IMG/VR virus record: IMGVR_UViG_3300033076_001065
Location: 1 to 42,932 of that record
DNA length: 42,932 nucleotides
Source: a virus
Lineage: Duplodnaviria; Caudoviricetes
Direction: 5' to 3' (one strand)
The position numbers and the translations under genes were made by a program. Shown here piece after piece: positions 17,403 to 42,932 of the stretch (position 1 is the first letter of the stretch; every line of letters begins with the position of its first letter). Below the pieces are notes generated by a model, which worked only from the letters and a program-made list of their open reading frames with translations, searched no databases and was not told where the DNA came from.

Positions 17403-18683
17403 TCAGGCCGTGACGGCAACGCGAACGTTGCTCCACGGGTCGTTGCAGTAGAGGGCCATGTCGCCGACCGCCCGGATCTCGCGCGCATCCGCGGAGTCCT
17501 CGAGCATCGGCGCGTCGGGCGTCGCGTCGTCGTCCCAGTGGATGAGGTCACCGGTAGACGCGAGCGTGAACGAGTCGAGGTTGAGCAGACGCTCGACGTT
17601 GTCGGGCGCCCACGGATCCGCGACCACTTCGATGGGGCCGCCTGCTCCGATGAGCTTGATCGCGTCGTACTCGACGCCGACCTTGAGCGAGCCGACCGGC
17701 GCGCTGGGCGCCTTCTGCATGACGAGCGCGTTCGCGTTCGACAGCTCGTTGTAGAGGTTCACCCACTGGCGGGTGGACATCACGTAGACGAGCCGCCCGT
17801 CCGAGGAGCCGGTGTCGGCCTGGACCTGCGACGCGTTCATGATGCGCTGCCGCGGGGAGATCGTCGTCGCGCTGATCACGTTGCCCGCGAGCTGGTCGGG
17901 GGCGTTCGTGCGCGTGACGCCGAGGAACGTCGACGGCGATCCCGCGTGGCTCGGGAGCCACGCGTCGAGGCCGTAGAGCACGCCGTCACCGCCCGCACCG
18001 GAGCCGACGGCGCCCGCGCGGAAGAGGTACGACGTGGTCGTGAGGCCCGAGATGGCGCCGCTCCACGTGGCCTCGTTGATCGTGATGGTCGGCGCGGTGG
18101 CGGTGCCTCCGACGCTGGCCACGGTGACGTAGCCCGGCAGGATCGACCCGCTCGTGCCGTCCGCGGTCGACGCCTGCAGCGTCATGCCCTTGACGATGCG
18201 GCGCTTGTCGGCCGCCGTGTCGAGCGCGACGGTCTGCGAAGCGAGCGTCGACGTCGACGCGATGCGACCGAGCGCACCTCCGCCGTTGCCGTGGATGAAC
18301 GACGAGAGGTCGTTCTTGATCTGCTTCATGAGGCCCTTGGAGTCGCGCCCCATGGGGTCGACGAGCAGGCCCTTGTTCCCGGTGTACTTGTACCGGCGGT
18401 ACAGGTCACCCGCGATCGAGAACGACCCGTAGTAGGTCGTGGTCTGGACCTGGAACTCCTCGGCGGTCGAGGCGGTCTTGTTCGCCTTCGCCTGACCGAA
18501 GTTGGCGCCGATGCCCTGCGGGGGGCTCGTGCCGACGGAGATGTAACGGATCTTCTCGCCGAAGGACGTGTCCTTCTTGATCATGCCGAGCAGGGGGGAG
18601 CCCTTGTAGATCTGCTCGACGATCGCTTCCCTCGGCCAGAGGTTGCGAATCATCTTGTAGACAGACATCTGTGCAGCAGCCAT
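17403..18683 (-). CDS. Major capsid protein
   Basis: 426 aa, follows scaffold; SPLLGMIKK, FIHGNGGGALG and IEVVADPWAP patterns typical of P22-like coat proteins. Confidence 0.85.
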   Translation of the reverse strand: MAAAQMSVYKMIRNLWPREAIVEQIYKGSPLLGMIKKDTSFGEKIRYISVGTSPPQGIGANFGQAKANKTASTAEEFQVQTTTYYGSFSIAGDLYRRYKYTGNKGLLVDPMGRDSKGLMKQIKNDLSSFIHGNGGGALGRIASTSTLASQTVALDTAADKRRIVKGMTLQASTADGTSGSILPGYVTVASVGGTATAPTITINEATWSGAISGLTTTSYLFRAGAVGSGAGGDGVLYGLDAWLPSHAGSPSTFLGVTRTNAPDQLAGNVISATTISPRQRIMNASQVQADTGSSDGRLVYVMSTRQWVNLYNELSNANALVMQKAPSAPVGSLKVGVEYDAIKLIGAGGPIEVVADPWAPDNVERLLNLDSFTLASTGDLIHWDDDATPDAPMLEDSADAREIRAVGDMALYCNDPWSNVRVAVTA

Positions 18684-21968: not shown

Positions 21969-22000
21969 CGCAATTGGGTTGCACCTGCAACCCAGTTGTG
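21969..22000. promoter_or_regulatory. Palindromic operator-like site upstream of the head genes
   Basis: CAAtTGGGTTGCA-cc-TGCAACCCAgTTG; contains two TGCAAC-n3-RTTG copies related to 27061..27075. Confidence 0.6.
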
Positions 22001-27137: not shown

Positions 27138-27212
27138 ATTTCCTCCCCACCCTAAAGGGTGGGGGAGGAAATGTCCTGACCTCCTAAGGGAGGCTCTGGG
27201 AGGCTTGGGAGG
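27138..27212. other. Long hairpin plus GGGAGG direct repeats (origin or terminator candidate)
   Basis: ATTTCCTCCCCACCCT-aa-AGGGTGGGGGAGGAAAT, second hairpin CCTCC-taag-GGAGG, four GGGAGG copies. Confidence 0.55.
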
Positions 27213-29456: not shown

Positions 29457-30857
29457 TCACTCCTCGGATACGAGGTCTTCCGCGTCACGAAAGACAAGGA
29501 CTGGCGGCGCGTTCGGTAGGAGGTAGGCGCGCTCGACGAGGTCGTTGACGATGGTGCGGCGCTTCTTTCCGTCGGCCCGCTTCCACGCCTGTTCGATCTC
29601 GCGGAGCTCGCGCAAGACCTCCCGACGAGGGCGCCGATCGGGTCGCGCCTGACGTTCCTCTTCGGCGTCGAGCCGCAGGAGCTCCTCGTCGACCTTCGCG
29701 AGCCGGGCGCGGTGCTCATCGCGGCTCATGGCGCCATCGGTGAAGGCGTCCGTGATGCGGGCCTTCTTCGCACGAAGCTTCGTCCGCTGTTCCGAGAAGT
29801 CCGGAGCCTGGGCGCGTACAGCCGGGGTCGCGAGCGCCTCACGCATCTCGCGTAGCTTCTCGAGAACCAGCGGAGCCGCCAGACGTTCGACGGCGCGGAC
29901 CTCGATGTAGCTGCCGGTGTTCGCCCGCGGCCCACGGCTCGAACACTTCGCGATGCAGCGGTAGTAGACCGCGCCCTTCGACCCGTACGAGCTGCCCATC
30001 TTCCTTCCGCAGTGACCGCAGACGGCGACATCCCGAAGGAACCAGTCATCGGTGCGCGTGGGAGCCCCCACACGAGGCTTCCAGCACCGACCGCCGATGG
30101 ACTCACGGGCGCGCTGAAACGTCGCCTTGTCGACGATGGCGGGATGCTTGCCGGCGATCCACTCGCCCTTGGAGTTGGTGAGCTCGCCCGTGTAGAAGCG
30201 TCGCGCGAGAATGTCTTTCACGCGGTCGCGACCGAACCCGACGATGGCCTGGATCTCCGCGATGCTCCGACCGCGAATGGCGAGACTGAACACGCGACGC
30301 ACGGTCTCCGCTTCGGTGAGCTCGACGACGAGCACGTTCCGCTCGAGCCCCTTCGCGTCCGGCCGGCGATAGCCGTAGGGAACGACGCCCTCGACCCAAT
30401 AGCCCTTGTCACGAAGGATGTGCCGCGTACCAACCATGCGCTGGCGGATGCGCTTGTGTTCCTCGCGGGCGAACAGGATGCGGAAGCTCATCGCCGAGTC
30501 GCCTTCGGAGGTCGACGGGTCGATGGCCTCTCCGACCGCGTAGAACGACGCGCCACATTCGAGGATCTTCCGGACGCTCGAGTAGGTGAACTCGGGATCG
30601 CGCGACCAGCGGTCGATCTTGTCGACGAGGACGAGGTCTCCTCGCGCGACGTCGCGCATGAGGGCGCGCATCTGCTCGCGGCGCTCCGTCTTCTCGCGGA
30701 TGCCGCTCTCCGCCTCGACGTAGAACTGCGTCACGCGGAGACCTTGTCGCTCCGCGTACGCCGCGATGGCCGCTTGCTGGTCCTGCAGCGACGTTCCTTT
30801 CGCTTGCTCCTCGGAGGAGACACGGGCGTAGCCGAAGACTCGTCGGGGTCGGGGCAT
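29457..30857 (-). CDS. int: Large serine recombinase (integrase)
   Basis: YARVSS catalytic motif, DRWSR, VPYGY, HPAIVD, CGHCG zinc ribbon, coiled coil. Confidence 0.93.
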   Translation of the reverse strand: MPRPRRVFGYARVSSEEQAKGTSLQDQQAAIAAYAERQGLRVTQFYVEAESGIREKTERREQMRALMRDVARGDLVLVDKIDRWSRDPEFTYSSVRKILECGASFYAVGEAIDPSTSEGDSAMSFRILFAREEHKRIRQRMVGTRHILRDKGYWVEGVVPYGYRRPDAKGLERNVLVVELTEAETVRRVFSLAIRGRSIAEIQAIVGFGRDRVKDILARRFYTGELTNSKGEWIAGKHPAIVDKATFQRARESIGGRCWKPRVGAPTRTDDWFLRDVAVCGHCGRKMGSSYGSKGAVYYRCIAKCSSRGPRANTGSYIEVRAVERLAAPLVLEKLREMREALATPAVRAQAPDFSEQRTKLRAKKARITDAFTDGAMSRDEHRARLAKVDEELLRLDAEEERQARPDRRPRREVLRELREIEQAWKRADGKKRRTIVNDLVERAYLLPNAPPVLVFRDAEDLVSEE

Positions 30858-30900
30858 TGGAGGGCGTCGAGGAGGGTTTCGGCGATCCGGTCGATGCGCC

Positions 30901-31158
30901 TCATCGGGCTCCCATGGTCCGCAGCACGCCCAGTACGAGCATGCCGCCGAAGGCGGCGCCTGCCGCGAAGACCGCGACGAGGATCGCGCCAATCGTGAGC
31001 TCGGGCTCGATGCTGTACGACGCTCGAACGCCGTCCACGTCACTGCTGTTCAGGTTCAGGCCGCCTGAGCGAACCGCCTGCGCAGTAGGTGACGCCGCGT
31101 GAACTCTGCCGTTCAGGTGCTTGTAGTCTGCACGATCCTGCCTCAGGGTGGAGCGCAT
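30901..31158 (-). CDS. Small membrane protein
   Basis: C-terminal hydrophobic helix LTIGAILVAVFAAGAAFGGMLVLGVL; start uncertain. Confidence 0.5.
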   Translation of the reverse strand: MRSTLRQDRADYKHLNGRVHAASPTAQAVRSGGLNLNSSDVDGVRASYSIEPELTIGAILVAVFAAGAAFGGMLVLGVLRTMGAR

Positions 31159-31162
31159 GGGG

Positions 31163-31456
31163 TCAACCGTCCGTTCCGGTACGGCGTCGCTCGGGTCCGT
31201 GCGGCAGCCAGCCTTTCGGGAGCGGCTGATCCCAGGCCTCGATCGGGATGCCCACAATGTCGCGAAGCTTCACCGAGAACTTCCGGCCGGGCTTGCGGTC
31301 GCCGTAGAGGAGTCGCGCGATCTTCGCGCCGTCCTCCTTGAGCTCCCGCGCGAGATCAGCCGGCTTCCAGCTTCGCCGCCGCATCTCGGCCCACACCATC
31401 GGAAGCGCGGCAGAGGTCTCGTCCCCCAAATGCTGTCGCAGTCGGTCCTCGGTCAT
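31163..31456 (-). CDS. Cro-like XRE HTH regulator
   Basis: PADLARELKEDGAKIARLLYGDRKP HTH; divergent from the repressor. Confidence 0.8.
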   Translation of the reverse strand: MTEDRLRQHLGDETSAALPMVWAEMRRRSWKPADLARELKEDGAKIARLLYGDRKPGRKFSVKLRDIVGIPIEAWDQPLPKGWLPHGPERRRTGTDG

Positions 31457-31462
31457 TCCCCG

Positions 31463-31491
31463 AAGGTACTGTTTCAAGACAGCGCTGTCAA
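31463..31491 (-). promoter_or_regulatory. Early promoter for the cro operon with CTGT-n6-ACAG operator
   Basis: TTGACA-17-TACCTT, ATG 6 nt later; spacer contains CTGTcttgaaACAG. Confidence 0.8.
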
Positions 31492-31537
31492 ATAACAAAA
31501 TCCACGCCGCCGCATGAGTCTGCTACCTTTTGTCAGT

Positions 31538-32131
31538 ATGAGCGCGTCAAGTCCTGGTCCTACCTCGGGTTTGGGCGAGCGCATCAAGAAGGCGATCGAT
31601 GAAGAGGGGCGTGGTCGTTCTCAGAATGCGCTCGAGCGGCAAGCGGGCTTCAAGCCCGGCGTGCTGAGTCGGTACATCAACCACAAGCCATCCGCGGACG
31701 ACGAGCGTTCGCGGACCGTCGACGTGGACAAGCTCGTCGCCCTCGCGGATCTGCTCCACGTGCGTCGCGAGTGGCTGCTTATGGGCGAGGGGCCCATGCG
31801 GAGAGAGGGGCGGAGCCAGACGAAGTTTGAGATCGCGATGGTGTTCGCGCGCCAGGCGGGGTGTCGCGAGGACGCAATCCAGCTCGCGTGGGAGCGTCTG
31901 AAACAGAACGAGCCCACGATGAGCGAGCTCGATTGGGCACAGGCTTTCCACAACGAGGCCCTCTTACTCGACCGCGCAGGCGTGAAGAGGCCTGAAAAGG
32001 TGAGCGAAGAGCAGGCGGCAATCGAACGGACCAAGAAAAAGCGGGCTCGCGCCATTGAGAAGCGCGAGGAGGAGGCGAAGAATGCGAGCGTGGTTTCTCT
32101 TCCTACCAAGCGTCGTGCTGCTGGTGATTAG
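31538..32131 (+). CDS. CI-like XRE repressor
   Basis: LGERIK...SQNALERQAG...LSRY...LADLLHVRREWLLMGEGPM; alternative start at 31514. Confidence 0.85.
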   Translation: MSASSPGPTSGLGERIKKAIDEEGRGRSQNALERQAGFKPGVLSRYINHKPSADDERSRTVDVDKLVALADLLHVRREWLLMGEGPMRREGRSQTKFEIAMVFARQAGCREDAIQLAWERLKQNEPTMSELDWAQAFHNEALLLDRAGVKRPEKVSEEQAAIERTKKKRARAIEKREEEAKNASVVSLPTKRRAAGD

Positions 32132-32582: not shown

Positions 32583-32629
32583 ATCACTGTTTCTTGACAG
32601 TGATGTTTCGAGACAGTAAGCTCTGTCTC
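32583..32629 (+). promoter_or_regulatory. Early promoter with tandem operators
   Basis: TTGACA(32594)-17-TAAGCT; inverted repeats ATCACTGT-n6-ACAGTGAT and GAGACAG-n6-CTGTCTC. Confidence 0.8.
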
Positions 32630-32630
32630 C

Positions 32631-32870
32631 ATGAAGACGCCGGTGCGCAAGGTCGGGGTGGGGATCTTCCGAATCGAGGAGGGCCAGCGCGTGCAGCGCT
32701 TCGGCTCGCTGGCTGCGGCGATCACGGAGCCGCCGCGCGACCCTGACGCTGAGATCCGCGGCCCCGGTGGCGTGCTCGCGAAGTCCACGCCGGACGACGA
32801 GCCGTGCGGCTGGGTCGTCACCGACCTCGGGCGTGCGCGTCTCGAGAGCGAGATCCGAGGTGCCGCGTGA
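32631..32870 (+). CDS. Hypothetical protein
   Basis: 79 aa, first gene after the promoter. Confidence 0.7.
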   Translation: MKTPVRKVGVGIFRIEEGQRVQRFGSLAAAITEPPRDPDAEIRGPGGVLAKSTPDDEPCGWVVTDLGRARLESEIRGAA

Positions 32871-33214
32871 GTGCCAAGGGCTGGCCTTCGGCGGACGCGG
32901 TGCTTGCGCTCGCACTGAGCGATGACCTCGCGGACTTCTACGAGGGCAGCAAGTACGAATCATCGAACGACAACGAGCGCCTGTACGTCGAGGACATGAC
33001 CGACGACGAGCGGCGGTGCCGTCGCGTGAACAACGCGTACGCCGCCGAGTGCCTGCTCATGGAGGCGCGTCGGCTGATGCGCCACCTTCGTCACGACCTA
33101 GGGCCCGCGATGGCTCGCGATCTGGGACTGCGCGACCGCGTCGACTGGCTGGAGAAGGCCCTCAAGAAAGCCGACGAGCGCGTCGAGCGCATCCGGGAGC
33201 TCGACGGCGAATGA
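32867..33214 (+). CDS. Hypothetical protein
   Basis: GTGA-coupled start, GAGG RBS. Confidence 0.7.
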   Translation: MSAKGWPSADAVLALALSDDLADFYEGSKYESSNDNERLYVEDMTDDERRCRRVNNAYAAECLLMEARRLMRHLRHDLGPAMARDLGLRDRVDWLEKALKKADERVERIRELDGE

Positions 33215-33435
33215 TTCCCGACGACGAGCGCACCACGCGGATCACCGCCAAACGCGCCGCCCGCAAGGGGCTGCCGCTCTGCGTTCAGTGTCACCGGGCC
33301 TGGGTGAGCAAGGCGCATCGCCTGACGTGCTCGCCCACATGCCGCCGCCTCTATCGGATCCGCCAGATGCGAGAGCTTCTCGAGCCCGAGCACAAAGCCG
33401 TCACCCTCATCTTTCCCAAGGAGCCACTGCTGTGA
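33211..33435 (+). CDS. Small zinc-finger protein
   Basis: CVQC...CSPTCR. Confidence 0.65.
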   Translation: MIPDDERTTRITAKRAARKGLPLCVQCHRAWVSKAHRLTCSPTCRRLYRIRQMRELLEPEHKAVTLIFPKEPLL

Positions 33436-34049
33436 ACGACGTCACGATCACGATGTCCCCGACTGTCGGCGCGCTCGCAAAGGCGCTCACCAAGGCGCAG
33501 CTCGAGACGACGGCCGTGGTGAAGGACTCCACGAACCCGCACTTCAAGAACCGATACGCGTCGCTCGCCGCGTGCATCGACGCGACCAAGATTTTGAACC
33601 GGCACGGAATCGCCGTGGTCCAGCCGCCCGCGGCTGCCGGCCCTGACGGCGTGTGCGTCGATACGTTCCTCATCCACGAATCGGGCGAGTGGATCCGCGG
33701 GCAACTCTACATGCCGGCGACGAAGAAGGACGCCCAGGGCTTCGGCTCCGCGCTGAGCTACGCGCGCCGGTACTGTCTCTGCGCGACCGCGAACCTGGCG
33801 ACCGACGACGATGATGGCGAGCACGCTCGCAAGTCGAACGGCAACGCAGACATGACGGACGCGCTGCAGAAGTCCGTCGAGTGGGGTGAGTGGGAGAAGG
33901 CGAAGGCTGCCGCACTCAAGGCGGCGAAGACCAAGGGCGAGCTCTTGGAAGTCTGGAACGACGTAAACGAGAAAGGGCGCGAGTCGCCGAACGGCACGCT
34001 CAAGCGGCTCGCGGCAATCAAGGACGAGCAGAAAGTGGCGCTGGCGTGA
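33432..34049 (+). CDS. erf: ERF-family single-strand annealing protein
   Basis: NPHFKNRYASL, HESGEW and GSALSYARRY signature. Confidence 0.92.
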   Translation: MNDVTITMSPTVGALAKALTKAQLETTAVVKDSTNPHFKNRYASLAACIDATKILNRHGIAVVQPPAAAGPDGVCVDTFLIHESGEWIRGQLYMPATKKDAQGFGSALSYARRYCLCATANLATDDDDGEHARKSNGNADMTDALQKSVEWGEWEKAKAAALKAAKTKGELLEVWNDVNEKGRESPNGTLKRLAAIKDEQKVALA

Positions 34050-34774
34050 GCGTGCGTCTGAGCATGTCCAAGATGCACGCCGAGTGCCTCTACGCGTTTC
34101 GCTCGGACGTGGACGCCAAAGAGCGTCCGCCGGGCAGAGAGGCGCGCGTGGGGTCGGCGACGCACACGCTCGCGGAGTACCACGTCAAAGGCCGGGCAGA
34201 GTCGCCCAAGGTCGACCCGCACGAGCTCGCCGCCGCCACCGTCCTGTTCGAGGGGCCGCTCCGTGGCTGGCTCGACAAGCGCGCGTGGACAGCGTGCGAG
34301 ATCGGGCTTCGGTACGACGCCGAGAATGACGCGACCACGATCGGCCCGCGTCGCGGCGAGCCCGGCTACGAGGACATCGGGCCCATGGTGCTCCCGGGCA
34401 CGCTCGACCTCGTGCACGTTGTCGACGACGCGGTGTGGATCGCCGACCTCAAGACCGGCAAGAAAGACAACGCGCACAAGCCGCAGCTCTACGCGCAGGC
34501 GGTGGCGGCGTCGCGGCTCTACGGCGTATCCACGGCGTTCGTGGGTTTCGTGTTTGCGCGGAAGACGAAGTGCGATGAGCCCGAGTGGGAAGCGCTCGAC
34601 GCCGACAGGCTCGACGCAGAGGCGGGAAGCATCCGGCGCAAGCTTCGGATGGTCCCGACCGCAGAGCCCGTTCTCGGGCAGGGGTGCTTCTACTGCCCGG
34701 CGCGCGACGTGTGCCCGGCGCAACAGCGTGCGCCCATCGGTGCAGAGGACTTGGACGCCATTGCGGCGTTTTGA
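34046..34774 (+). CDS. PD-(D/E)XK exonuclease (RecB/Cas4-like)
   Basis: GTLD...IADLKTG...QLYAQA; C-terminal CFYC-x5-C. Confidence 0.85.
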   Translation: MSVRLSMSKMHAECLYAFRSDVDAKERPPGREARVGSATHTLAEYHVKGRAESPKVDPHELAAATVLFEGPLRGWLDKRAWTACEIGLRYDAENDATTIGPRRGEPGYEDIGPMVLPGTLDLVHVVDDAVWIADLKTGKKDNAHKPQLYAQAVAASRLYGVSTAFVGFVFARKTKCDEPEWEALDADRLDAEAGSIRRKLRMVPTAEPVLGQGCFYCPARDVCPAQQRAPIGAEDLDAIAAF

Positions 34775-34791
34775 AGGAAAGGAACGGAGAC

Positions 34792-35133
34792 ATGATCAGC
34801 GTGACGGCAATCGGCAATCTCGGACGTGACGGCGAGCTCAAGTCGGCGGGCAACACGGAGGTGGTGAACTTCTCGATCGCGTGCCGCGGTCGCGAGAAGG
34901 ACTCGACGACGTGGGTAGACTGCGCGCTTTTCGGCAAGCGGGCGGTGGCGGTGGCTCCATACCTGAAGAAGGGCGGCCGAGTCGGCGTCATGGGCACGCT
35001 CTCGACGCGTGAACACAACGGCAAGACGTACCTCAAGATCGACGTGCAGGAGCTCGAGCTTCTCGGTGACAAGTCGAAGAGCGACGAGCGGCCTTCGTCG
35101 AAGGAGCCCCCTCAGGACGAGATTCCGTTCTGA
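34792..35133 (+). CDS. ssb: Single-stranded DNA-binding protein
   Basis: IGNLGRD, YLKKG, acidic DEIPF tail. Confidence 0.95.
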   Translation: MISVTAIGNLGRDGELKSAGNTEVVNFSIACRGREKDSTTWVDCALFGKRAVAVAPYLKKGGRVGVMGTLSTREHNGKTYLKIDVQELELLGDKSKSDERPSSKEPPQDEIPF

Positions 35134-35333
35134 TGAGCCCCGCCGCCAAGCTCGTGAGCATCGAGCCCGGTAGCAAGATGATCGACGCGAAAGACGCGCG
35201 CATCGTGTACCGGGCCGAGGGGTACACGCAGGGTCGCTCGACGATGGATGGCGGGCGCGTCGAGTGGGTGAAGCTCGACGACGGCCGCGAGGTGCTCGTG
35301 GACATCAAGGACATGGCCGCGGTGCCCGTGTGA
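35133..35333 (+). CDS. Hypothetical protein
   Basis: 66 aa, TGATG coupling. Confidence 0.7.
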   Translation: MSPAAKLVSIEPGSKMIDAKDARIVYRAEGYTQGRSTMDGGRVEWVKLDDGREVLVDIKDMAAVPV

Positions 35334-35412
35334 GTTGCCGCTGCCTGCACTGCGGCGGGCGCTGGCGACAGTCGCTGTGGGACCGACTCGTCATGTGGAT
35401 CTGGAGGCGAAC

Positions 35413-36210
35413 GTGAGCACGGACGGCAAGGGCGATCGGGGCGGGGCCTACGAGCAGCTGCGCAGGACGGTTGACGGCGAACACGGCACCTTCGCAACGG
35501 TGGATCGCAGTAGCGATGCGACGCCGTGTACCGGCTGCACACTCGCACGCGAGAACGGCCTCGACGAGTACGAGTGCATGACGTGTGGCGCGAAGTGGAC
35601 GGACGGCAAGATCCCGCCCGTGCGGATGGTGCGCAGTTTCGATGCGCCGACAGGGCGCCTTCGCGACGACGACCTGGATGCCGCGCGGCGCTTCTGGCCG
35701 TGGCTGCCAGCCGACGACGTAGAGGCAGGCGCGAAGGTCGCCGAGATCGTCGCTCGCGAGAGCGAGCAGCGGAGTTCGGAGGCGCTGCCAGAGATGGAGA
35801 CGATTCAGTGCATGGGCGAAGGACCCGAATACGCGCTGCACACTGTCCAGCGTGAACGCCGTTCCAAGGCAAGCCCGGAGCCGTGCCAGCATCCGCCCGA
35901 GAAGCAATACCTCGACGAGAACGACGACGTGCAGTGCAGCACGTGCGATCCGCCCGTCGAGTGGAGTGTCGAGGCGTGGCGCGAGGACGGTCGCCCGTGC
36001 TCGCGATGTCACGAGTCGATCGCGTGGGAGGGCGACCCGCCCGAGTCCGCCGACGACGCGATGTGCAACGAATGCGTGCGCGACGAACTGAGCGCGCTTC
36101 GCCGCGAGCGCGATGCTGGCCGACCCGATGCTCCACCCGAGCCGCCGAAGGCCCCTTCGCCTCTGAGCGACGCGGGCATGTTCGTGGAACGCACCAAGAG
36201 GGGGCGGTGA
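35413..36210 (+). CDS. Multi-CxxC hypothetical protein
   Basis: GGAGG RBS; CTGC, CMTC, CSTC, CSRC and CNEC motifs. Confidence 0.65.
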   Translation: MSTDGKGDRGGAYEQLRRTVDGEHGTFATVDRSSDATPCTGCTLARENGLDEYECMTCGAKWTDGKIPPVRMVRSFDAPTGRLRDDDLDAARRFWPWLPADDVEAGAKVAEIVARESEQRSSEALPEMETIQCMGEGPEYALHTVQRERRSKASPEPCQHPPEKQYLDENDDVQCSTCDPPVEWSVEAWREDGRPCSRCHESIAWEGDPPESADDAMCNECVRDELSALRRERDAGRPDAPPEPPKAPSPLSDAGMFVERTKRGR

Positions 36211-36758
36211 TGCCTGTCGTCGGCATGCGCTCCAAGAACCACCGGAACGACGTCATGAAGCGCGGCGGCGTGGATGACGCCACGGACGACCGCGAGACGC
36301 CGCCCTACATCTTCGACCCGCTTCACGCAGAGCACGGGTTCACGCTCGACGCCGCTGCCGCCCCGCACAACGCAAAGCTGGCGCGGTACTTCACGCGCGA
36401 GATCGACGGCCTGGTCCAGTCGTGGGCCGGCGAGCGCGTGTGGTGCAACCCGCCGTATTCGCAGCTCCGTCAGTGGACGGCGAAGGCACTCGCCGAAGTC
36501 GCGACCGGCTGCCCCCTGGTCGTCCTGCTGCTTCCCGCGAACCGCACCGAACAGAGCTGGTGGCAGGAGATGATCGAGCCCGTTCGCGATCGCGAGGGCA
36601 CCGGAGTGCGCACCATCAACCTCCCGGGGCGCGCCCGCTTCCTGAACGTGACGCACCACAACGCGCGCGGCGGATCCCATGCCGGGTTCGGATGCGTCGT
36701 CATCGTGATCGAGCCCCCGAGGGCTGGCAGAGAGAGTGCTCAGAAAGGAGGCGGCTAA
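36210..36758 (+). CDS. Phage DNA N6-adenine methyltransferase
   Basis: ETP...FTLDAAA...DGLVQSW...VWCNPPYS...LLLPA.RT. Confidence 0.92.
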   Translation: MPVVGMRSKNHRNDVMKRGGVDDATDDRETPPYIFDPLHAEHGFTLDAAAAPHNAKLARYFTREIDGLVQSWAGERVWCNPPYSQLRQWTAKALAEVATGCPLVVLLLPANRTEQSWWQEMIEPVRDREGTGVRTINLPGRARFLNVTHHNARGGSHAGFGCVVIVIEPPRAGRESAQKGGG

Positions 36759-36802
36759 CCGTGCGGAATGTCGTTTTCTCGAACGATCGACATGCCAGCA
36801 CC

Positions 36803-36831
36803 TTGCGCGCTGGGTACCCAGCGCTTAGCTT
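36803..36831 (+). promoter_or_regulatory. Cassette 1 promoter/operator
   Basis: TTGCGC-17-TAGCTT; perfect 18-bp palindrome GCGCTGGGTACCCAGCGC (36807-36824); ATG 6 nt downstream. Confidence 0.8.
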
Positions 36832-36837
36832 CCTCTC

Positions 36838-37023
36838 ATGAGCAAGACGGCCCGATACGAGGTTGTGAGCGGTACGCGGGTTGCCCCTGGCGCGGTGCTG
36901 GCCGCGTTCCCGGTGGTGGGCGAGTACAAGTGCGGCGGCGCAGCGACGGCCTGCCTTCGCTGGTTCGACCGGGCGCAGCGCAAGGCCGGTGCCGCGCCGA
37001 TGTTCTTTCGCAAGGTCTCGTGA
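36838..37023 (+). CDS. Cassette 1 cargo, hypothetical (61 aa)
   Basis: Directly after the promoter, no RBS, GTGA overlap with the RHH gene. Confidence 0.7.
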   Translation: MSKTARYEVVSGTRVAPGAVLAAFPVVGEYKCGGAATACLRWFDRAQRKAGAAPMFFRKVS

Positions 37024-37220
37024 GTACGATCGCGGCCATGGCCGCCAAGAAGAAGCCCGGGAGAAATATTCATGAAACCGAACGCCACACCATCCAAGTC
37101 AAGCTGCGACTCCCGCCCGACGTCGCCGAACGACTCGACGAGCTTGCCGAGCGCCGCGGGCTCACGCGAGCGGGCGCCGTCGCGTGGCTGCTCGACCGGC
37201 ACGAGGGGCTCGAAGAGTAA
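37020..37220 (+). CDS. Ribbon-helix-helix (CopG/Arc-like) regulator 1
   Basis: IQVKLRLPPDVAERLDELAERRGLTRAGAVAWLL; alternative ATG at 37038. Confidence 0.85.
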   Translation: MSTIAAMAAKKKPGRNIHETERHTIQVKLRLPPDVAERLDELAERRGLTRAGAVAWLLDRHEGLEE

Positions 37221-37236
37221 GGCCCTCGACTCGCAC

Positions 37237-37497
37237 GTGCCCCTGACCGAGGAGGACGTCGCTGTGCTCCTTGCCTGCCGCGACGATGGCGAGCCTCCTG
37301 TGGAGATCCACGACGCGACGATTCACCGACGTCTGGAGGCCCAGGGCTTGCTGTCGCGTCGAAGCGGACCGAGCCCGGACGGAGACGGCGAAGCCGAGTT
37401 CTGGCGCACGACCGAGTTTGGCGTCTGGGCGCTTTGGTACCTGGGTCGGGTGGAGCAGATGCCGTGCTCACCGGGAGAGGAGAAGGACCGTGGCTAG
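37237..37497 (+). CDS. Hypothetical protein, winged-helix-like
   Basis: LTEEDVAVLL...RRLEAQGLL...WRTTEFG; start uncertain. Confidence 0.5.
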   Translation: MPLTEEDVAVLLACRDDGEPPVEIHDATIHRRLEAQGLLSRRSGPSPDGDGEAEFWRTTEFGVWALWYLGRVEQMPCSPGEEKDRG

Positions 37498-37840
37498 GTA
37501 CACGTACACGAGCGACGACCCGAAGGACCCGAACTACCGACTCTCGATCGAAGAGGAAGGCGAAGACGACGACGGGACCGGCTACGGGCTCATCACCATC
37601 GCGGAGGAGAGCACCACGTCGGCCGCGATCACGGCTCAGACCACCGGCATCCGCGGCGCAGTCGACCTCACGACCGAGCAGGCGAAGTGGCTCTACTTCG
37701 CGCTCGGCAAGATGCTCCTGAGCCGCGGCGGGCTCGATCCGAACGGCATCCACGGCGTCTCCGACAAGGAAGCCAATCGTCGTCGCCCGGTGCCGAAGTC
37801 CGCGGCGCTCAGCGTGAGCGATCCAGGAGGTGAGAAGTGA
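37490..37840 (+). CDS. Hypothetical protein
   Basis: AAGGA RBS, GTG start. Confidence 0.65.
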   Translation: MARYTYTSDDPKDPNYRLSIEEEGEDDDGTGYGLITIAEESTTSAAITAQTTGIRGAVDLTTEQAKWLYFALGKMLLSRGGLDPNGIHGVSDKEANRRRPVPKSAALSVSDPGGEK

Positions 37841-38157
37841 GCGCGAAAGTCCTCTGCGGGATGCGGTACATCGAGCGCTCGACGAAGCGCGACCGGACGG
37901 AGCTCACGTGCACGCTCGAGCGCGGCCACGAGAAGCCCGTTCACGAGATGACGCTGAACGGGAAGTGGCTCGGGGGCTGGGTCGACCAGTGGCGCCCGGA
38001 CGGCACCCCACGGCTCGGCATCAAGGCGAAGGAACAGGAGCCCCCGCTGGACATGCCGGCGAACTGGCGCGGCGAGCCGATCGCGCCGGAGCCGGAGCAG
38101 CCCTCGCTGTTCGACGAATCGCCGAGGCAGTCCTACTCGTCGAAAGAGGTGAAGTAA
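37837..38157 (+). CDS. Hypothetical protein
   Basis: 106 aa, GGAGG RBS, coupled. Confidence 0.7.
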   Translation: MSAKVLCGMRYIERSTKRDRTELTCTLERGHEKPVHEMTLNGKWLGGWVDQWRPDGTPRLGIKAKEQEPPLDMPANWRGEPIAPEPEQPSLFDESPRQSYSSKEVK

Positions 38158-38384
38158 TGGCGAAAAAGAAGCTGAGCGAAGTCACTGGAAACACCATCCG
38201 ACGCTGGATCGAGCGCCGCGCGCTGGAACTCGGAGACGAGGCCAAGGAAGACGCGAAGGCCACCAACGACCGGCACATGTCCGACTACTACAACGCGAAG
38301 GCCGAGGGCGCGTGGGAGGTCGTGAAGGCGATCCGTCTCGGCTCGTTCATCCCGACCGCGTTCCGCAAGCGAGCGCGCAAGTGA
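38157..38384 (+). CDS. Hypothetical protein
   Basis: MAKKKLSEVTG..., TAATG coupling. Confidence 0.7.
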   Translation: MAKKKLSEVTGNTIRRWIERRALELGDEAKEDAKATNDRHMSDYYNAKAEGAWEVVKAIRLGSFIPTAFRKRARK

Positions 38385-38656
38385 ATCGCCACCAGCGACG
38401 CGCGCAGGCGAAGACGCAGCGCTTCGTCGCCCCGTGCAACGCATGCGGGAAGGACTGTGAGCTTCACACGCTCAAGCCTCGCGCGATCTACGTGGGCGAT
38501 CCGACCGCGCCGGACGACCTCGGCATCTGCAAGGGCTGCCCGTGCTCCACCGGCATGTGCGACTCGTGCGGGGAGAGCGAAGGCCACTGGCTTGGGTGCC
38601 CGCTCGTCGGTCTCCCGGAGATGCCGCCGGAGCCCACCATCACGACGGTCCAGTGA
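38381..38656 (+). CDS. Cys-rich small protein, paralogue of 3..245
   Basis: CNAC, CKGCPC, CDSC and HWLGC motifs; GTGA coupling. Confidence 0.8.
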   Translation: MNRHQRRAQAKTQRFVAPCNACGKDCELHTLKPRAIYVGDPTAPDDLGICKGCPCSTGMCDSCGESEGHWLGCPLVGLPEMPPEPTITTVQ

Positions 38657-38702
38657 CCGCGATTTTGCTGATGCCATCCCACACCGAGGAGAAGTGACGA
38701 CC

Positions 38703-38891
38703 ATGCGTGTCCTCCTAGATCTGATCTTCGACCGCTTCCGCTGGTATCGCCGACTCCGCGGCGGGCACTGGGAGCAGTGGTGGATCATGCCGCCTGTCGC
38801 CTCCACGGTGTGGATTCAGAAGCCGCACGACGCCGCGCCGCCTTTCGGGGCAAAGATTCTCGATGCGTGCGAGGACCACAAATCGACCTAG
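38703..38891 (+). CDS. Hypothetical Trp-rich protein
   Basis: GAGGAG RBS; MRVLLDLIFDRFRWYRRLRGGHWEQWW. Confidence 0.6.
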   Translation: MRVLLDLIFDRFRWYRRLRGGHWEQWWIMPPVASTVWIQKPHDAAPPFGAKILDACEDHKST

Positions 38892-38897
38892 GGCCAC

Positions 38898-38925
38898 TTG
38901 CGCGCTGGATATCCAGCGCTAGGTT
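38898..38925 (+). promoter_or_regulatory. Cassette 2 promoter/operator
   Basis: TTGCGC-16-TAGGTT; perfect palindrome GCGCTGGATATCCAGCGC (38902-38919); ATG 7 nt downstream. Confidence 0.8.
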
Positions 38926-38932
38926 ATCCGAC

Positions 38933-39166
38933 ATGACGAACGAACACTGCACCCGTACCGACTGCTACTGCGACGGCCTGGCCCCCGGCGACTCGTGCCG
39001 CAATTGGGCGGAAGTGGTGGCGTACGAAGAGGAGATCGCCAACGGGTGGTCTCCGGCCCAGGCGCGTGCGCGCGTCGAGTCCTTTCACAAGCCGCGCAAG
39101 GCACCTTCGGCTGCGGAGGCCTCCGCCATGGAGGTCCTCTGGCGCCGCATCGAAGCCAACGGATGA
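38933..39166 (+). CDS. Cassette 2 cargo, hypothetical (77 aa)
   Basis: MTNEHCTRTDCYCDG...; no RBS; ATGA overlap with the RHH gene. Confidence 0.7.
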   Translation: MTNEHCTRTDCYCDGLAPGDSCRNWAEVVAYEEEIANGWSPAQARARVESFHKPRKAPSAAEASAMEVLWRRIEANG

Positions 39167-39384
39167 GCGATACCCTGGCCGGCATGGCCACCAAGAAAAA
39201 GCCCGGAAAGAACATCCCCAATGCCCAGCGTCACACCGTCCAGCGTCTCCTCCGACTGCCCCCCGACATCGACGAGCGGCTCACCGAGCTTGCCGAGGAA
39301 TGGGGGATCACCGTCTCCGGCGCCGTCGCGCGCCTCGTCGAAGAGCACGACGGAGCCCGGGACGCACGAGCACGAATACGTTGA
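39163..39384 (+). CDS. Ribbon-helix-helix regulator 2
   Basis: VQRLLRLPPDIDERLTELAEEWGITVSGAVARLV; paralogue of RHH 1; alternative ATG at 39184. Confidence 0.85.
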   Translation: MSDTLAGMATKKKPGKNIPNAQRHTVQRLLRLPPDIDERLTELAEEWGITVSGAVARLVEEHDGARDARARIR

Positions 39385-39419
39385 CGACGCCCGTCCCGGT
39401 TGGGGCGGGGGTTGTTTCT
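39383..39419 (+). terminator. Possible intrinsic terminator after cassette 2
   Basis: CCCGTCCC-ggtt-GGGGCGGG followed by GGTTGTTTCT (weak U tract). Confidence 0.4.
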
Positions 39420-39522
39420 GTCGGGTCTGCGGCTTCCGCGTTCCACCGTCGATGGCGCTGCACGAAGACGTCGTCCGCAGGAAGGTCGCTGCGGATAGCT
39501 CGGGCGATCCCAAGAGGTCGCC

Positions 39523-40026
39523 GTGATCCGCACCTGCTCTGACGAGGCCTGCCTCTCGTTCGACTGCTCGACGTGCATCGCGGGCAACGCGGAGATCTGC
39601 GCGTGCGGACATCCGCGGCGCGATCACCAGGTGAAGCTACCCGCGCCATGTCGCAACGGCGCCGGCGATCCGCCAGAGCCGAAGCCCGGAGAGTGCTTCC
39701 TGCGCGCCGTGGACGAGTGGCAACGGACGGGCTGCCAGTGCCTTGCGTTCTCACCAGCGCTCGAATGGCGCACCGATGAGATCCGCCTGGGCATGTCGAT
39801 CTACTGGGTCGCATCGTGGCGCGAGGACGTGCCCGAGGGAGGAGCCGTCCGTCCAGGCTTTCGCTGGTCCGGGGGACGCGGGGAGGTCGGCGGCTGGACC
39901 GCGGGCGGGCGCCACTTCGCGCTCCGCGAGGCACGAGAGGCGTACGCGGCGCGCGAGGCGTTGCAGCGTGTAGCCGACAGGAAGGCGGTGGCGGAGTTGA
40001 CGGGCGATCGCGAGGTGAAACCGTGA
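39523..40026 (+). CDS. Hypothetical Cys-rich protein
   Basis: 167 aa, GAGGT RBS. Confidence 0.65.
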   Translation: MIRTCSDEACLSFDCSTCIAGNAEICACGHPRRDHQVKLPAPCRNGAGDPPEPKPGECFLRAVDEWQRTGCQCLAFSPALEWRTDEIRLGMSIYWVASWREDVPEGGAVRPGFRWSGGRGEVGGWTAGGRHFALREAREAYAAREALQRVADRKAVAELTGDREVKP

Positions 40027-40136
40027 ACCCGTGCCTGTACGTCGACACCACGTGGTACTGGCTGACCGCCTCGACAAACTGGACGCCCTACGTCGTGTCT
40101 TGGCAGTCGTCCAGCGATCGCGAGGTGAAGTCGTGA
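40023..40136 (+). CDS. Micro-ORF (37 aa)
   Basis: VNPCLYVDTTWYW...; flanked by near-identical RBS linkers. Confidence 0.5.
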   Translation: MNPCLYVDTTWYWLTASTNWTPYVVSWQSSSDREVKS

Positions 40137-40480
40137 TGCGCTACGACGCGATCCCCGGCGTGTGGCTCCGCTACGACGGGTACGAGACGAGGCTTCAGGT
40201 CGACCGCGCGAAGGAGTTTCGCGGGCTCGAACTGGACGAGCTGGAGGCGCTCATCGAGGTGCTCACGAAGGCCGCGAGGTGCCGCAAGGACGGTCGCAAG
40301 GCCTGCGGGCGCCCCGCTGTCGTCGCCGACCGTCACGCGCCCGATGAGCACGCCCTTTGCGCAGAGCACTACTCGCGGCTGTCGCGGTCGGAGGACATCG
40401 ACCTCTGGCCCACCACGCCCGAGGGGCAAGCCGCGCTGACGTGCACGGAGAAGTTCTCCGCCGCCAAGGAGGGCACATGA
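40136..40480 (+). CDS. Hypothetical protein
   Basis: MRYDAIPGVWLRYDGY..., TGATG coupling. Confidence 0.65.
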   Translation: MRYDAIPGVWLRYDGYETRLQVDRAKEFRGLELDELEALIEVLTKAARCRKDGRKACGRPAVVADRHAPDEHALCAEHYSRLSRSEDIDLWPTTPEGQAALTCTEKFSAAKEGT

Positions 40481-40671
40481 TCGCCATCAACACCGGACGG
40501 AAGGCGGGGAAGACATACGAGCTGCTGCGCGAGGCGTACGACAGGGCGAAGCTCGGCGACGTCGTCCTGATCGCCGGGATCGTCGAGGAGTTTTCGGTCG
40601 TGATGCTCAATGCGAAGCGCTATCGCGAGCTCGTAGCGGCGGAGCAGGCCGGCAAGCGAGGTGAGCCGTGA
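40477..40671 (+). CDS. Small protein with P-loop-like GRKAGKT
   Basis: 64 aa, GGAGG RBS. Confidence 0.65.
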   Translation: MIAINTGRKAGKTYELLREAYDRAKLGDVVLIAGIVEEFSVVMLNAKRYRELVAAEQAGKRGEP

Positions 40672-40824
40672 AGGGCTGCGGGCCGTGCGCGTCGATCCGG
40701 TTCACGTGGGGATGGGGGCACGGTCCCACGCCCAGGTGCCCTCGACACGATCACTGGGTTCGAGCTGGCCGGTGGTTCATGAAGAACGCGCTGAGATCGC
40801 AGTGCATGAGCGATCCAAGGGCAT

Positions 40825-40871
40825 AGCACTGTTCAACCAGTGCTTGACAACTGTTCAAACAGTGCTATACT
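40825..40871 (+). promoter_or_regulatory. Cassette 3 promoter with two operators
   Basis: TTGACA-16-TATACT; direct repeat ACTGTTCAA(C/A)CAGTGCT at 40828 and 40850, each copy itself palindromic. Confidence 0.85.
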
Positions 40872-40878
40872 GTAACCC

Positions 40879-41118
40879 ATGAACAACGCACCGAAGCTCG
40901 CGAAGGCGGGCGACAAGATGACCGACAAGGCATGCAAGAAGCTCCGGGGCTACCCGCCCGGGACGACCGTGCAACCCAAGGCCGAGGGCGACCGAGGCCA
41001 GTGGCTTTGCATCGACTGCGGCGAGCCGTTCGCCAACAACATGCAGGCGAACGGCCACGCCAAGTCTCATCGGCTGGCCTGGCGCAACTTCGAGACCGGC
41101 AACCTCGAGGAGGCGTGA
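40879..41118 (+). CDS. Cassette 3 cargo A, zinc-finger-like (79 aa)
   Basis: CIDC-x12-H-x3-H C2H2-like spacing; no RBS. Confidence 0.75.
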   Translation: MNNAPKLAKAGDKMTDKACKKLRGYPPGTTVQPKAEGDRGQWLCIDCGEPFANNMQANGHAKSHRLAWRNFETGNLEEA

Positions 41119-41354
41119 TGGGCGACGTCCGACAGCTCAACTCCGGTCGCTGCATCCAGGTCGTGTCGCTCGACGAGCAGGGCGCCCGAGACTTCTGCAT
41201 CAGCTTCCTCGGCGTGCCGCCCGAACGCATCGATCGGGTGCTCGACGCCGGACCCAACAAGCGGCCCGAGAAGTACAAGCCCGAGGCGCGGGAATACCAC
41301 GTGTTCCTGCGGGGCACTCCGTCGAAGCCCTACCGCTTTCGGTCGAAGCGATGA
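41118..41354 (+). CDS. Cassette 3 cargo B, hypothetical (78 aa)
   Basis: MGDVRQLNSGRCIQVV..., GGAGG RBS, TGATG coupling. Confidence 0.7.
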   Translation: MGDVRQLNSGRCIQVVSLDEQGARDFCISFLGVPPERIDRVLDAGPNKRPEKYKPEAREYHVFLRGTPSKPYRFRSKR

Positions 41355-41566
41355 GCGATAATCCGAGGATGCCGAGCAACCCGAAGGAGTCGAAGTGGTA
41401 CGCAACGCCGAAAGAAGCCAGGAACCGGAAGCCGATCGGCATCACGCTGAGCGACGAGGCGCGGGACCGGCTCGACCGAATGGCCAAGGCCAGGAAGCAA
41501 TCGAGGTCGGCGGTCATCGAGGAGATGATCATGTCGACTTACATCCGGCCGCCGTCGGAGGAGTGA
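41351..41566 (+). CDS. Ribbon-helix-helix (CopG-like) regulator 3
   Basis: KPIGITLSDEARDRLDRMAKARKQSRSAVIEEMI. Confidence 0.85.
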   Translation: MSDNPRMPSNPKESKWYATPKEARNRKPIGITLSDEARDRLDRMAKARKQSRSAVIEEMIMSTYIRPPSEE

Positions 41567-41615
41567 GACCTGCGGCGCCTTGTGCATCCGTTCGAGAACA
41601 GGAAGGAAAGTGACG

Positions 41616-41852
41616 ATGGGAGCCATTCAAGACCTCGCCGACGACAACGAGAAGACCATGCGCCGCGTGTTCGAGATCCTGCTCACCGAGCGGACCACGG
41701 AGACCATCGACTACCAGCTGAAGCTCCTTCACGATCTCGCGCACGAACGCTCGATGGCGCTCAAGTTCGCCGCCATCGGTCGCGAGCCCATCCCGTCGAA
41801 CGTCACCGGCGTCATCGTCGATGCGGCGCCTTCTGGAGGCGATCATGGCTGA
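41616..41852 (+). CDS. Hypothetical protein
   Basis: AAGGA RBS; MGAIQDLADDNEK... Confidence 0.6.
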   Translation: MGAIQDLADDNEKTMRRVFEILLTERTTETIDYQLKLLHDLAHERSMALKFAAIGREPIPSNVTGVIVDAAPSGGDHG

Positions 41853-42087
41853 GCACGTCCTCGCAGGCCGCGACGTGAAACTCGTCGGCGACGAGCGCGC
41901 GATCAAGCAGTACCGCGCCGAGATGGCCCTTCGCTATGTGGCGGTGCAGGAAGCGGCCGACCTGCTTCGGTTCGCGAAGGGCAAGATCGAGCACAAGCTC
42001 GCTGGGGAGGTGTCCCGGTGGCACGACTCGGTCGACGAGTGGCTCGCAGCTGCGCAGCCTGAAGGCGCCGCATCGGAGGATAAGTGA
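41845..42087 (+). CDS. Hypothetical protein
   Basis: GGAGG RBS; MAEHVLAGRDVK... Confidence 0.65.
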   Translation: MAEHVLAGRDVKLVGDERAIKQYRAEMALRYVAVQEAADLLRFAKGKIEHKLAGEVSRWHDSVDEWLAAAQPEGAASEDK

Positions 42088-42290
42088 CCGACCATCGAAA
42101 GAAGCGCATCCGCAAGCTGGCCGACGAGCTCGGGGTCTCGCACAGGTCGGCGGCGAACATCATCGCGAAGCGGACCGCGTGCGTGCGCGCTGGCCATCCG
42201 GCGAATCGCGATCCACACGGGCCGAAGTGCACGGACTGCGGCCACGTGTTCGCTGCGCCGGCACCAGGCCAGCGAGGAGAACCGAAGTGA
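42084..42290 (+). CDS. Hypothetical protein (HTH-like N-terminus, CxxC)
   Basis: RIRKLADELGVSHRSAANII; CTDCG. Confidence 0.6.
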   Translation: MTDHRKKRIRKLADELGVSHRSAANIIAKRTACVRAGHPANRDPHGPKCTDCGHVFAAPAPGQRGEPK

Positions 42291-42487
42291 ACCCGTACCG
42301 AGAGACACCGTATGCGGTTGGCGATGAGGTGGAGTTCGTGAAGGCGGACGGTTACCACCTTCCGTTCGGCACGCATCGCGTAACAGCCATTCACACTGAC
42401 GGCTCGATCGGCGTCGCGAACGGGTGGGCGTTCCCGTGGGATCTCCGCCGTCCAGCGGCGCCGTCCGAGAGCGAGCCCCCGCGATGA
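42287..42487 (+). CDS. Hypothetical protein
   Basis: VNPYRETPYAVGDEVEFV..., coupled. Confidence 0.6.
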   Translation: MNPYRETPYAVGDEVEFVKADGYHLPFGTHRVTAIHTDGSIGVANGWAFPWDLRRPAAPSESEPPR

Positions 42488-42762
42488 GCCAGCACGAGCT
42501 GAAGACGTGGCCCGATCCGTTCCAGGCCGTCATCGACGGAGACAAGACGTACGAGATTCGCGTGAACGATCGCCTGTTCGCGGTCGGCGACGAGCTCGTG
42601 CTGCGCGAGTGGAGTCCGGTCACGCGGAGTTACACGGGCCGATCCGCAACAGCGATCGTGAGCCACATGACCGACGGCGACTGGGGCCTTCCCGAGGGCC
42701 TCTGCGTGATGGCGCTGGCGGAAATCCGCATGGGCTTGCTGCACAAGGGCGATCCCAAGTGA
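42484..42762 (+). CDS. ASCH/PUA (DUF3850-like) domain protein
   Basis: HELKTWPDPFQAVIDGDKTYEIRVNDRLFAVGDELVLREW. Confidence 0.88.
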   Translation: MSQHELKTWPDPFQAVIDGDKTYEIRVNDRLFAVGDELVLREWSPVTRSYTGRSATAIVSHMTDGDWGLPEGLCVMALAEIRMGLLHKGDPK

Positions 42763-42932
42763 GATGCACGCACTGCAACGTGTACGAGCGGCACGCGGAC
42801 GGACTCTGTCGCCGCTGCCTCTCCGCCCGCACGTGGAACCCGGAACGGTTCGAGCGTCTTCGGTGGCTCGGCTGGCCACGATTCGCGTGGGAGCTGATCA
42901 AGGCCGCGGCCCGCATGGCGTGGGAGCATAGG
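42759..42932 (+). CDS. Cys-containing ORF running off the end; probably continues into 3..245
   Basis: GTGA-coupled start, 58 codons open to the end of the window. Confidence 0.55.
   Translation, partial: MRCTHCNVYERHADGLCRRCLSARTWNPERFERLRWLGWPRFAWELIKAAARMAWEHR

Follow-up and report, generated by a model that had tools for sequence, protein, structure and literature searches.

The 42,932-bp window analysed here, the whole of virus record IMGVR_UViG_3300033076_001065 (68% GC, completeness rated 55%), belongs to an uncultured temperate tailed phage. Genes for a terminase, a head-tail adaptor, an endolysin-like protein, a primase/helicase and a serine integrase lie on the minus strand, a CI-like helix-turn-helix (HTH) gene is located at 31514-32131, and a rightward early operon extending from ~32600 encodes ERF, an exonuclease, a single-stranded DNA-binding protein (SSB), a Dam-type methylase and many small open reading frames (ORFs). 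The three cassettes that are the subject of this report are all located within this CI-controlled operon. Each comprises a sigma70-type promoter, a palindrome, one or two small orphan ORFs, hereafter cargo, and a gene for a ribbon-helix-helix (RHH) protein, as the first-pass annotation of the sequence had described; the positions of the units, the lengths of the cargo ORFs (61, 77, 79 and 78 aa) and the RTGA overlaps that it listed were likewise confirmed.

All genes of the cassettes are encoded on the plus strand. In unit 1, an ATCGAC motif (36786-36791) conserved in relatives precedes the -35 box by 10-11 nt, and the predicted leaderless promoter (36803-36831; TTGCGC-17-TAGCTT) is separated by 6 nt from the ATG at 36838. 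The putative operator 1 (36807-36824) is a perfect 18-bp palindrome with the core GGTACC. Cargo 1 (36838-37023; 61 aa), to which no function could be assigned, is followed by RHH1 (37020-37220; strand QVKLRL), for which the GTGA overlap and ATG 37038 are alternative starts, the latter behind an internal -10 box, TACGAT (37025-37030). A third ORF (37237-37497; 86 aa), without a match in Pfam, completes the unit. Unit 2 is organized similarly, with an ATCGAC motif and predicted leaderless promoter at 38882-38925 (TTGCGC at 38898, spacer of 16, TAGGTT, then 7 nt to ATG 38933), a perfect 18-bp palindrome as putative operator 2 (38902-38919; core GATATC, the same as in the related cassettes L087/L088), cargo 2 (38933-39166; 77 aa) and RHH2 (39163-39384; strand QRLLRL), which may start in the ATGA overlap or from ATG 39184, downstream of the internal -10 box TACCCT (39171-39176). 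A terminator-like GC hairpin with a weak U tract follows RHH2 (39390-39409). Unit 3 is headed by a putative operator array (40788-40865) that consists of two imperfect palindromes 22 bp apart (40826-40843, core TTCAAC; 40848-40865, core TTCAAA) and a third match in the arms only (40788-40805, core AGATCG). Its predicted leaderless promoter (40844-40871; TTGACA-16-TATACT, with an extended TG) lies 7 nt ahead of ATG 40879, the start of cargo 3a (40879-41118; 79 aa), which contains one C2H2 zinc finger (C44-x2-C-x12-H-x3-H64). Cargo 3b (41118-41354; 78 aa), with its own Shine-Dalgarno sequence, and RHH3 (41351-41566; strand PIGITL) follow, the latter with two candidate starts, the ATGA overlap and ATG 41369, of which the second follows the internal -10 box GATAAT (41357-41362).

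The operators of all three units share common arms around a 6-bp core (GCRCTG-N6-CAGYGC, 18 bp). Two perfect palindromes of at least 18 bp are present in 33001-42932, against an expected mean of 0.13, and none of 200 dinucleotide shuffles reached two. SOS boxes have the form CTG-N10-CAG, and the operators, being CTG-N6-CAG, were rejected as such. A consensus promoter scanner passes only the unit-3 promoter (1 found, 0.5 expected); the unit-1 and unit-2 promoters fit the consensus less well, and the case for them rests on recurrence in other phages. Besides unit 1, the ATCGAC motif is found in unit 2, in the related cassettes L005, L006, L007, L040, L080 and L110, in both units of L095 and in L071, and may act as an UP-like element or mark a recombination border.

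Of the 113 plus-strand ATGs in 32600-42900, nine have an A..T hexamer 6-7 nt upstream, and six of these nine are the three cargo starts and the three second RHH starts. The RTGA-overlap RHH starts lack a Shine-Dalgarno sequence; 15 of 18 other early starts have one, and none of the 18 has such a hexamer (the starts of ERF, SSB, k, l and o were left out of this count). Several RHH1 homologues begin with STI/DTL/NTL-x-x-M, an in-frame reading of the TACnnT box, and in L005, L007, L040 and L080 the overlap itself is the RHH start, so that both start arrangements exist. The cargo transcripts are accordingly predicted to be leaderless, and each RHH gene would have a second, -10-only promoter.

RHH1 (E = 3.6e-6) and RHH3 (E = 1.3e-8) pass the cut-off of Pfam RHH_1 (PF01402), RHH2 remains below it, and a match to CopG was obtained at E = 0.005. 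The window proteins display the arrangement of the RHH superfamily, a beta-strand with alternating polar residues followed by two helices. The paralogy of RHH1 and RHH2 proposed earlier is supported by 58% identity, and RHH3 is 15-20% identical to RHH1. A profile built from 21 RHHs retrieves both subtypes, with 147 clusters at E <= 1e-10 and 2325 at 1e-3; judged by sequence, the three window RHHs are members of one wide family. Arginine is found four residues ahead of the strand in 150 of 153 aligned segments, and the RHHs in cassettes are 56-73 aa long with short variable tails. In metagenomes the profile yielded at least one cassette (L007) and at least one unrelated RHH (L008), and in the GTDB genomes a single weak match (L009). 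RHH1 has no match in plasmids, and in phages it matches only mycobacteriophage RHHs at E = 0.1. One of these, from cluster B (38%, E = 0.1), was not counted as a relative, as its neighbourhood, inspected by eye, lacks the ATCGAC/operator frame. A description of this RHH family or of its operator was not found in the literature searched, which mostly excludes subscription journals; the data tables of the paper on Aca14 may list homologues.

Searches with the RHHs and with promoter patterns revealed ten related cassettes in nine other records (L005, L006, L007, L040, L080, L087/L088, counted once, L091, two in L095, and L110), and bore out the expectation of a fixed promoter-operator-RHH frame with swapped cargo. 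A palindrome is present in nine of these ten cassettes, L110 being the one without, and the cargo is mostly non-homologous. In L007, the -35 box and the operator are those of unit 1 and the RHH is 73% identical, with a different cargo. In an all-against-all BLAST comparison of 18 cargo proteins or domains, only three homologous pairs and one weak match (E = 0.024) were detected, none involving window cargo. L005, L006 and L007 came from the RHH profile search, each RHH lying below the same type of promoter and palindrome with differing cargo, and L040, L080, L087/L088 and L091 came from the promoter patterns, together with the promoter-only L071, in the record of which no RHH was found. The cargo of L091 led to MW202476.1 (L095), with two tandem cassettes (980-2750), each headed by an identical 22-nt upstream motif. 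Some cassettes hold two cargo genes or cargo-RHH fusions; in L095 an 80-aa domain precedes the second RHH as an N-terminal fusion, as in L091. Insertion sites also vary: the window phage carries its units in the early operon, and L005 is located between the primase and terminase genes, as judged by ORF reading.

The exact unit-1/2 promoter pattern gave four matches in viral contigs, all of them chance by context; a looser one gave 69, of which four have an RHH downstream, one is a perfect palindrome at a contig end (L071) and 64 were read as chance. With the core left free, five of seven matches were cassettes and two were chance, and with a pattern blind to the operator, 2 of 32 matches were linked to an RHH, L110 among them. 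L006 represents a variant of the layout, with a leadered cargo and a GC hairpin and separate ribosome-binding site between cargo and RHH (L006:3920-3970). L110 and L132 belong to one phage (record G009), which encodes three divergent RHHs of an M-x-R-P-(K/S)-L-P subtype, two of them behind strong leaderless promoters; no palindrome was recognized in L110.

Contigs from eight sequencing runs (X2, X5, X6, X8, X9, X10, X11 and X17) align to the region. The match extends over 36756-37464 with one difference in X2, where it is flanked on both sides by unlike sequence, over 36801-37464 with four differences in X5, and over 36801-37467 with five differences in X6, in the interior of a 36.6-kb contig. 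The block is hence at least 99% identical in X2, X5 and X6, which represent three studies; X8, X9, X10, X11 and X17 hold parts of it, X11 also ending at 37464, and most contigs continue past the block with unaligned sequence. The samples are from wastewater, soil, a biofilter and activated sludge. The extent of the shared block shows that unit 1 includes the upstream motif and, for the most part, the third ORF, and that it moves between otherwise different genomes. On the evidence of these alignments, unit 1 is a mobile block of ~709 bp (36756-37464) comprising upstream motif, promoter-operator, cargo, RHH1 and third ORF; it lies where the first-pass annotation had placed it and is larger than the extent given there. 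In one X5 contig the promoter region occurs twice, the copies being 869 letters apart; in a different X5 contig, 38921 at the unit-2 promoter is linked to 39183 in RHH2 with the cargo left out, which also speaks for mobility. The aligned contigs include no long piece of unit 3, from which nothing can be concluded. No RNA data set is listed among those that contain the region, X10 probably being DNA.

P22 Arc and Mnt and the plasmid protein CopG are RHH repressors in which alternating residues of the beta-strand read the operator (Q9, N11 and R13 in Arc); their targets are an antirepressor or plasmid replication rather than variable cargo. In the cassettes, the three outward strand positions, which we take to correspond to Arc 9, 11 and 13, co-vary with the operator core: QKR occurs with GGTACC (unit 1, L006, L007), AKR/TKR with GGGCCC (L005, L095a), QLR/ALR with GATATC (unit 2, L087), RTH with GTACAC/GTGTAC (L040, L080), RSR with GGCGCC, and PGT with TTCAAM. 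Among ten cassettes, the middle strand residue and core positions 2 and 5 are concordant in 39 of 45 pairs (permutation p = 0.0046, kinship ignored). This comparison leaves out L080 and L088 as near-duplicates, L091, in which the strand register is unclear, L110, which has no operator, and L071, which has no RHH. The core classes are not clustered on the RHH tree (5 changes; mean of 5.6 after shuffling). A single starred branch (96/97) joins L006 (QKR, GGTACC) with L040/L080 (RTH, GTRYAC); because L006 is grouped with these two and nevertheless has QKR and GGTACC, strand and core changed together within the clade, and the core of L006 is shared with the more distant unit 1. L087 and L091 were found by the scan that leaves the core free. 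Although indirect, the co-variation provides the strongest argument for recognition of its own operator by each RHH, and supports autorepression, proposed at first reading, as probable. Since the three cores differ, the units are probably regulated separately, by orthogonal autorepression.

Three or four related palindromes of the form ACTG-N8-CAG (31468, 32586, 32602) are located in 31466-31485, by the promoter on the Cro side, and in 32584-32631, where the early rightward promoter lies (TTGACA at 32595, TAAGCT, leaderless ATG 32631). Lying ~1.1 kb apart and flanking CI on either side, they are likely CI operators. The unit-3 sites, ACTG-N6-CAGT, resemble them, which raises the question of whether CI or Cro of the phage, or a host regulator, rather than the adjacent RHH, reads the cassette palindromes, in particular those of unit 3; the presence of an RHH without a palindrome in L110 would fit such a scheme. 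The spacing of the two kinds of site differs by 2 bp, a change that HTH dimers rarely tolerate, the arms of unit 3 agree with those in the other two units, and in phages whose immunity regions differ the cores still track the RHH strand. We therefore give control by CI, Cro or a host regulator very little credence indeed.

We consider it probable that the units are mobile accessory operons in which the RHH binds the palindrome in its own promoter and shuts the cassette off, giving a burst of expression followed by silence. Upon entry into a repressor-free cell, the strong leaderless promoter would fire at once, and cargo would be made in a short burst as the phage DNA enters and be silent afterwards, when the product of the RHH gene, the last or second-last of the unit, represses the unit's own promoter. 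The paired beta-strands of the RHH dimer would read the 6-bp core, and the N-terminal arm with its invariant arginine the shared CTG/CAG arms. The internal -10 box would probably provide the RHH with a low-level transcript of its own, maintaining silence in the lysogen. Sequence comparison indicates that cargo is exchanged between phages; the ERF/exonuclease system probably brings this about by recombination at the flanks, where promoter and RHH are conserved. The independence from CI envisaged in the first-pass annotation holds only in part: the units lie inside the CI-controlled operon and a terminator-like hairpin is present only after unit 2, so that they are not insulated, and the operator of unit 3 is similar to the immunity sites.

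The same early annotation had named the cargo as candidate effectors of anti-defence or host takeover. No cargo matches an anti-defence family, which leaves the layout as the basis of the anti-defence claim, and no observation connects any of the cargo with CRISPR. For the four window cargo, no family above cut-off was found in Pfam, PHROGs, NCBIfam or PADLOC, and no Acr (anti-CRISPR) or anti-defence match in the PDB. A hit of cargo 1 to AAC(6') was rejected (18.6 bits versus a cut-off of 225, for a protein of only 61 aa and a poor model); its predicted structure is of low confidence (pLDDT 62). Cargo 2 has no family, PDB or usable ESM Atlas match, and cargo 3b no usable ESM Atlas match. The C2H2 finger of cargo 3a (40879-41118) is canonical, matching C2H2 proteins at best with E = 1.8e-4; it is a eukaryote-like single finger in a 79-aa phage protein. 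Two homologues of cargo 3a (90-91% identical) and one of RHH3 were retrieved from ENA, and one pair among them shares a longest contig of 997 bp, which suggests linkage. The cargo of L040 and L080 share an invariant YRI...GVSxCxS pattern, and YRI...GVS/GVD patterns in the cargo of L080 (2552-2917), L040 and L110 (2053-2397) resemble those of ADP-ribosyltransferases; the L080 and L110 cargo do not align with each other. Foldseek gave nothing at E <= 0.001 for a structural model of the L080 cargo (pLDDT 76.5); ADP-ribosyltransferase folds make up the top three rows and several others (E = 0.35-2.5, TM <= 0.37), non-significant and only a hint that this cargo type might adopt such a fold.

This hint, together with the gene order and overlap, invites comparison with reverse-order type II toxin-antitoxin systems such as HicAB and BrnTA, in which the cargo would be a toxin and the RHH would neutralize it by binding as well as repress the promoter. 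The RHHs give weak matches to antitoxin models of the RelB-like and BrnA types, with E values (1e-4 to 0.02) that fall far short of the cut-off. Nearly the same RHH, however, stands behind unrelated cargo (unit 1 versus L007 and L005), which could hardly be neutralized by one protein antitoxin; the RHHs are small, with short variable tails, some units have two cargo genes or a cargo-RHH fusion, and the cargo matches no toxin family and does not form a fixed, coherent set of toxin partners. A toxin-antitoxin nature of the units hence appears improbable.

Regulation could also be as proposed and the cargo play no part in conflict, being neutral or lysogenic-conversion morons, or passengers of a small selfish promoter-RHH module that restarts early-operon transcription and captures adjacent ORFs. 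The lack of any cargo of known function, the differing insertion sites, the missing terminators of units 1 and 3 and the third gene that travels downstream of RHH1 are all compatible with this, and PeSL cassettes shuffle non-essential ORFans likewise (PMC2839356, available portion). Strong promoters and matched operators retained across diverged phages, and a near-identical block across several habitats, rather suggest selection on controlled expression of the cargo, so that we regard a cargo without a conflict role as unlikely. That the cargo acts in early host conflict, in counter-defence or host takeover, is a reading by analogy that we consider evenly poised.

Several observations weigh against this combined picture of self-limiting, exchangeable conflict cassettes. 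The unit-2 joint in X5 rests, on one side, on a stretch of only 29 letters at 85% likeness, the sequence between its two parts being unread. The co-variation set is small and its permutation makes no correction for kinship, the tree is mostly poorly resolved (one of nine inner branches starred), and the looser search pattern fixed the outer core bases. L110, with the upstream motif, the promoter type and a distant RHH yet no clear palindrome, counts against universality, and searches of viral contigs with RHH3 and cargo 3a recovered no cassette relative of unit 3 with context. Units 1 and 3 lack a clear terminator and so may also drive downstream early genes. Finally, no Acr, anti-restriction, defence or toxin family was found among the four window cargo and the 8-10 cargo of relatives compared with each library, a small sample set against general libraries, and none of the cassettes was seen to have an acr gene nearby.

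No cultured relative of the surrounding phage was found: by blastn the units have no match in cultured phages, nor do cargo 3a and the L080 cargo by tblastn, the terminase is 41% identical to that of a virus from an enrichment culture, and integrase identity is at most 28% among the matches listed. The serine integrase (start ~30857; region 29457-31456, minus strand) occupies an unusual position: within the leftward operon it comes immediately after a Cro-like ORF (31163-31456; no match in Pfam) and small ORFs, and upstream of the endonuclease and primase genes. Long hairpin-type inverted repeats with 9-10-bp arms in the late and replication regions (17943-17964, 21975-21994 and 27145-27164) are possible terminators or operators. 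A 32-nt direct repeat (81%; 39995-40026 and 40105-40136), with a tiny ORF between the copies, ends in GCGATCGCGAGGTGAA..GTGA at successive gene junctions and looks like a duplication or insertion scar.

Among known systems, the RHH precedent first invoked, Aca10, does not apply: PMC9410881, in its available portion, describes a dimeric HTH protein and contains neither 'ribbon' nor 'RHH'. The acrIC7-acrIC6-aca10 operon resembles the cassettes in that a ~20-bp palindrome between -35 and -10 is bound by a dimer encoded last; it differs in its proven Acr cargo and in the HTH fold of Aca10, the window proteins being of the RHH type. The RHH-type precedent is Aca14, which represses its own promoter by binding to an inverted repeat there and the homologues of which adjoin the known acr genes AcrIF23, AcrIF6 and AcrVA3 (Feussner et al., NAR 2026, PMC13551039; bioRxiv 10.64898/2026.07.27.740549). 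As far as the accessible part of that paper goes, the two share a small cargo placed first, an RHH of ~60-70 aa that extends past the core fold and is placed last, and an inverted repeat on the promoter. In the Aca14 case the repeat is AT-rich and overlaps the -10 box, and one protein represses two operons, whereas here GC-rich operators lie between -35 and -10, with one RHH and one core per unit; no known acr stands beside the window cassettes, and it is by description that they are set apart from Aca14. The cassettes have two hallmarks of Aca loci, a small DNA-binding gene placed last with small cargo and an inverted repeat overlapping the operon promoter. Because no known acr or anti-defence gene adjoins any of the family members examined, a small sample compared with general libraries, they are not filed as Aca.

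Reg576 of the Bacillus plasmid p576 is a self-regulating RHH repressor that likewise confers transient expression on small genes after DNA entry, in that case plasmid establishment genes; it is plasmid-borne, one repressor serves four promoters through dual heptamer repeats, and the regulated genes include a known anti-restriction gene (PMC6294495, in the part available). The PeSL cassettes of T4-type phages, as described in the accessible text of PMC2839356, resemble the units in that conserved strong-promoter elements flank swappable ORFans and act as recombination points. PeSLs combine a promoter and a terminator stem-loop without a dedicated repressor, whereas here the palindrome lies in the promoter spacer and tracks the RHH, a downstream hairpin follows unit 2 only, and the phage is temperate with 68% GC. 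By analogy, the cassettes work like acr-aca operons, most closely the RHH-type Aca14, and also like Reg576, so that the layout itself is already known.

Aca-type regulators are the main guilt-by-association handle for anti-defence genes, and Aca14, the first RHH one, was described only in 2026. Tentatively, the RHH family (147 clusters at E <= 1e-10) might be an unrecognized Aca-like marker for GC-rich uncultured phages, with a simple recognition code that stacks self-limiting cassettes without cross-talk, the middle strand residue K, L or T selecting GG..CC, GA..TC or GT..AC, and with new counter-defence proteins in a cargo pool that includes the C2H2 finger and a possible ADP-ribosyltransferase; we consider this reading as a whole possible rather than likely. 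A second, broad RHH family with a defined operator would offer a search handle in a phage group without cultured relatives, with ~17 orphan cargo as candidates. The natural series of matched strand-operator pairs makes an RHH recognition code directly testable, and such pairs might supply small orthogonal repressor-promoter pairs.

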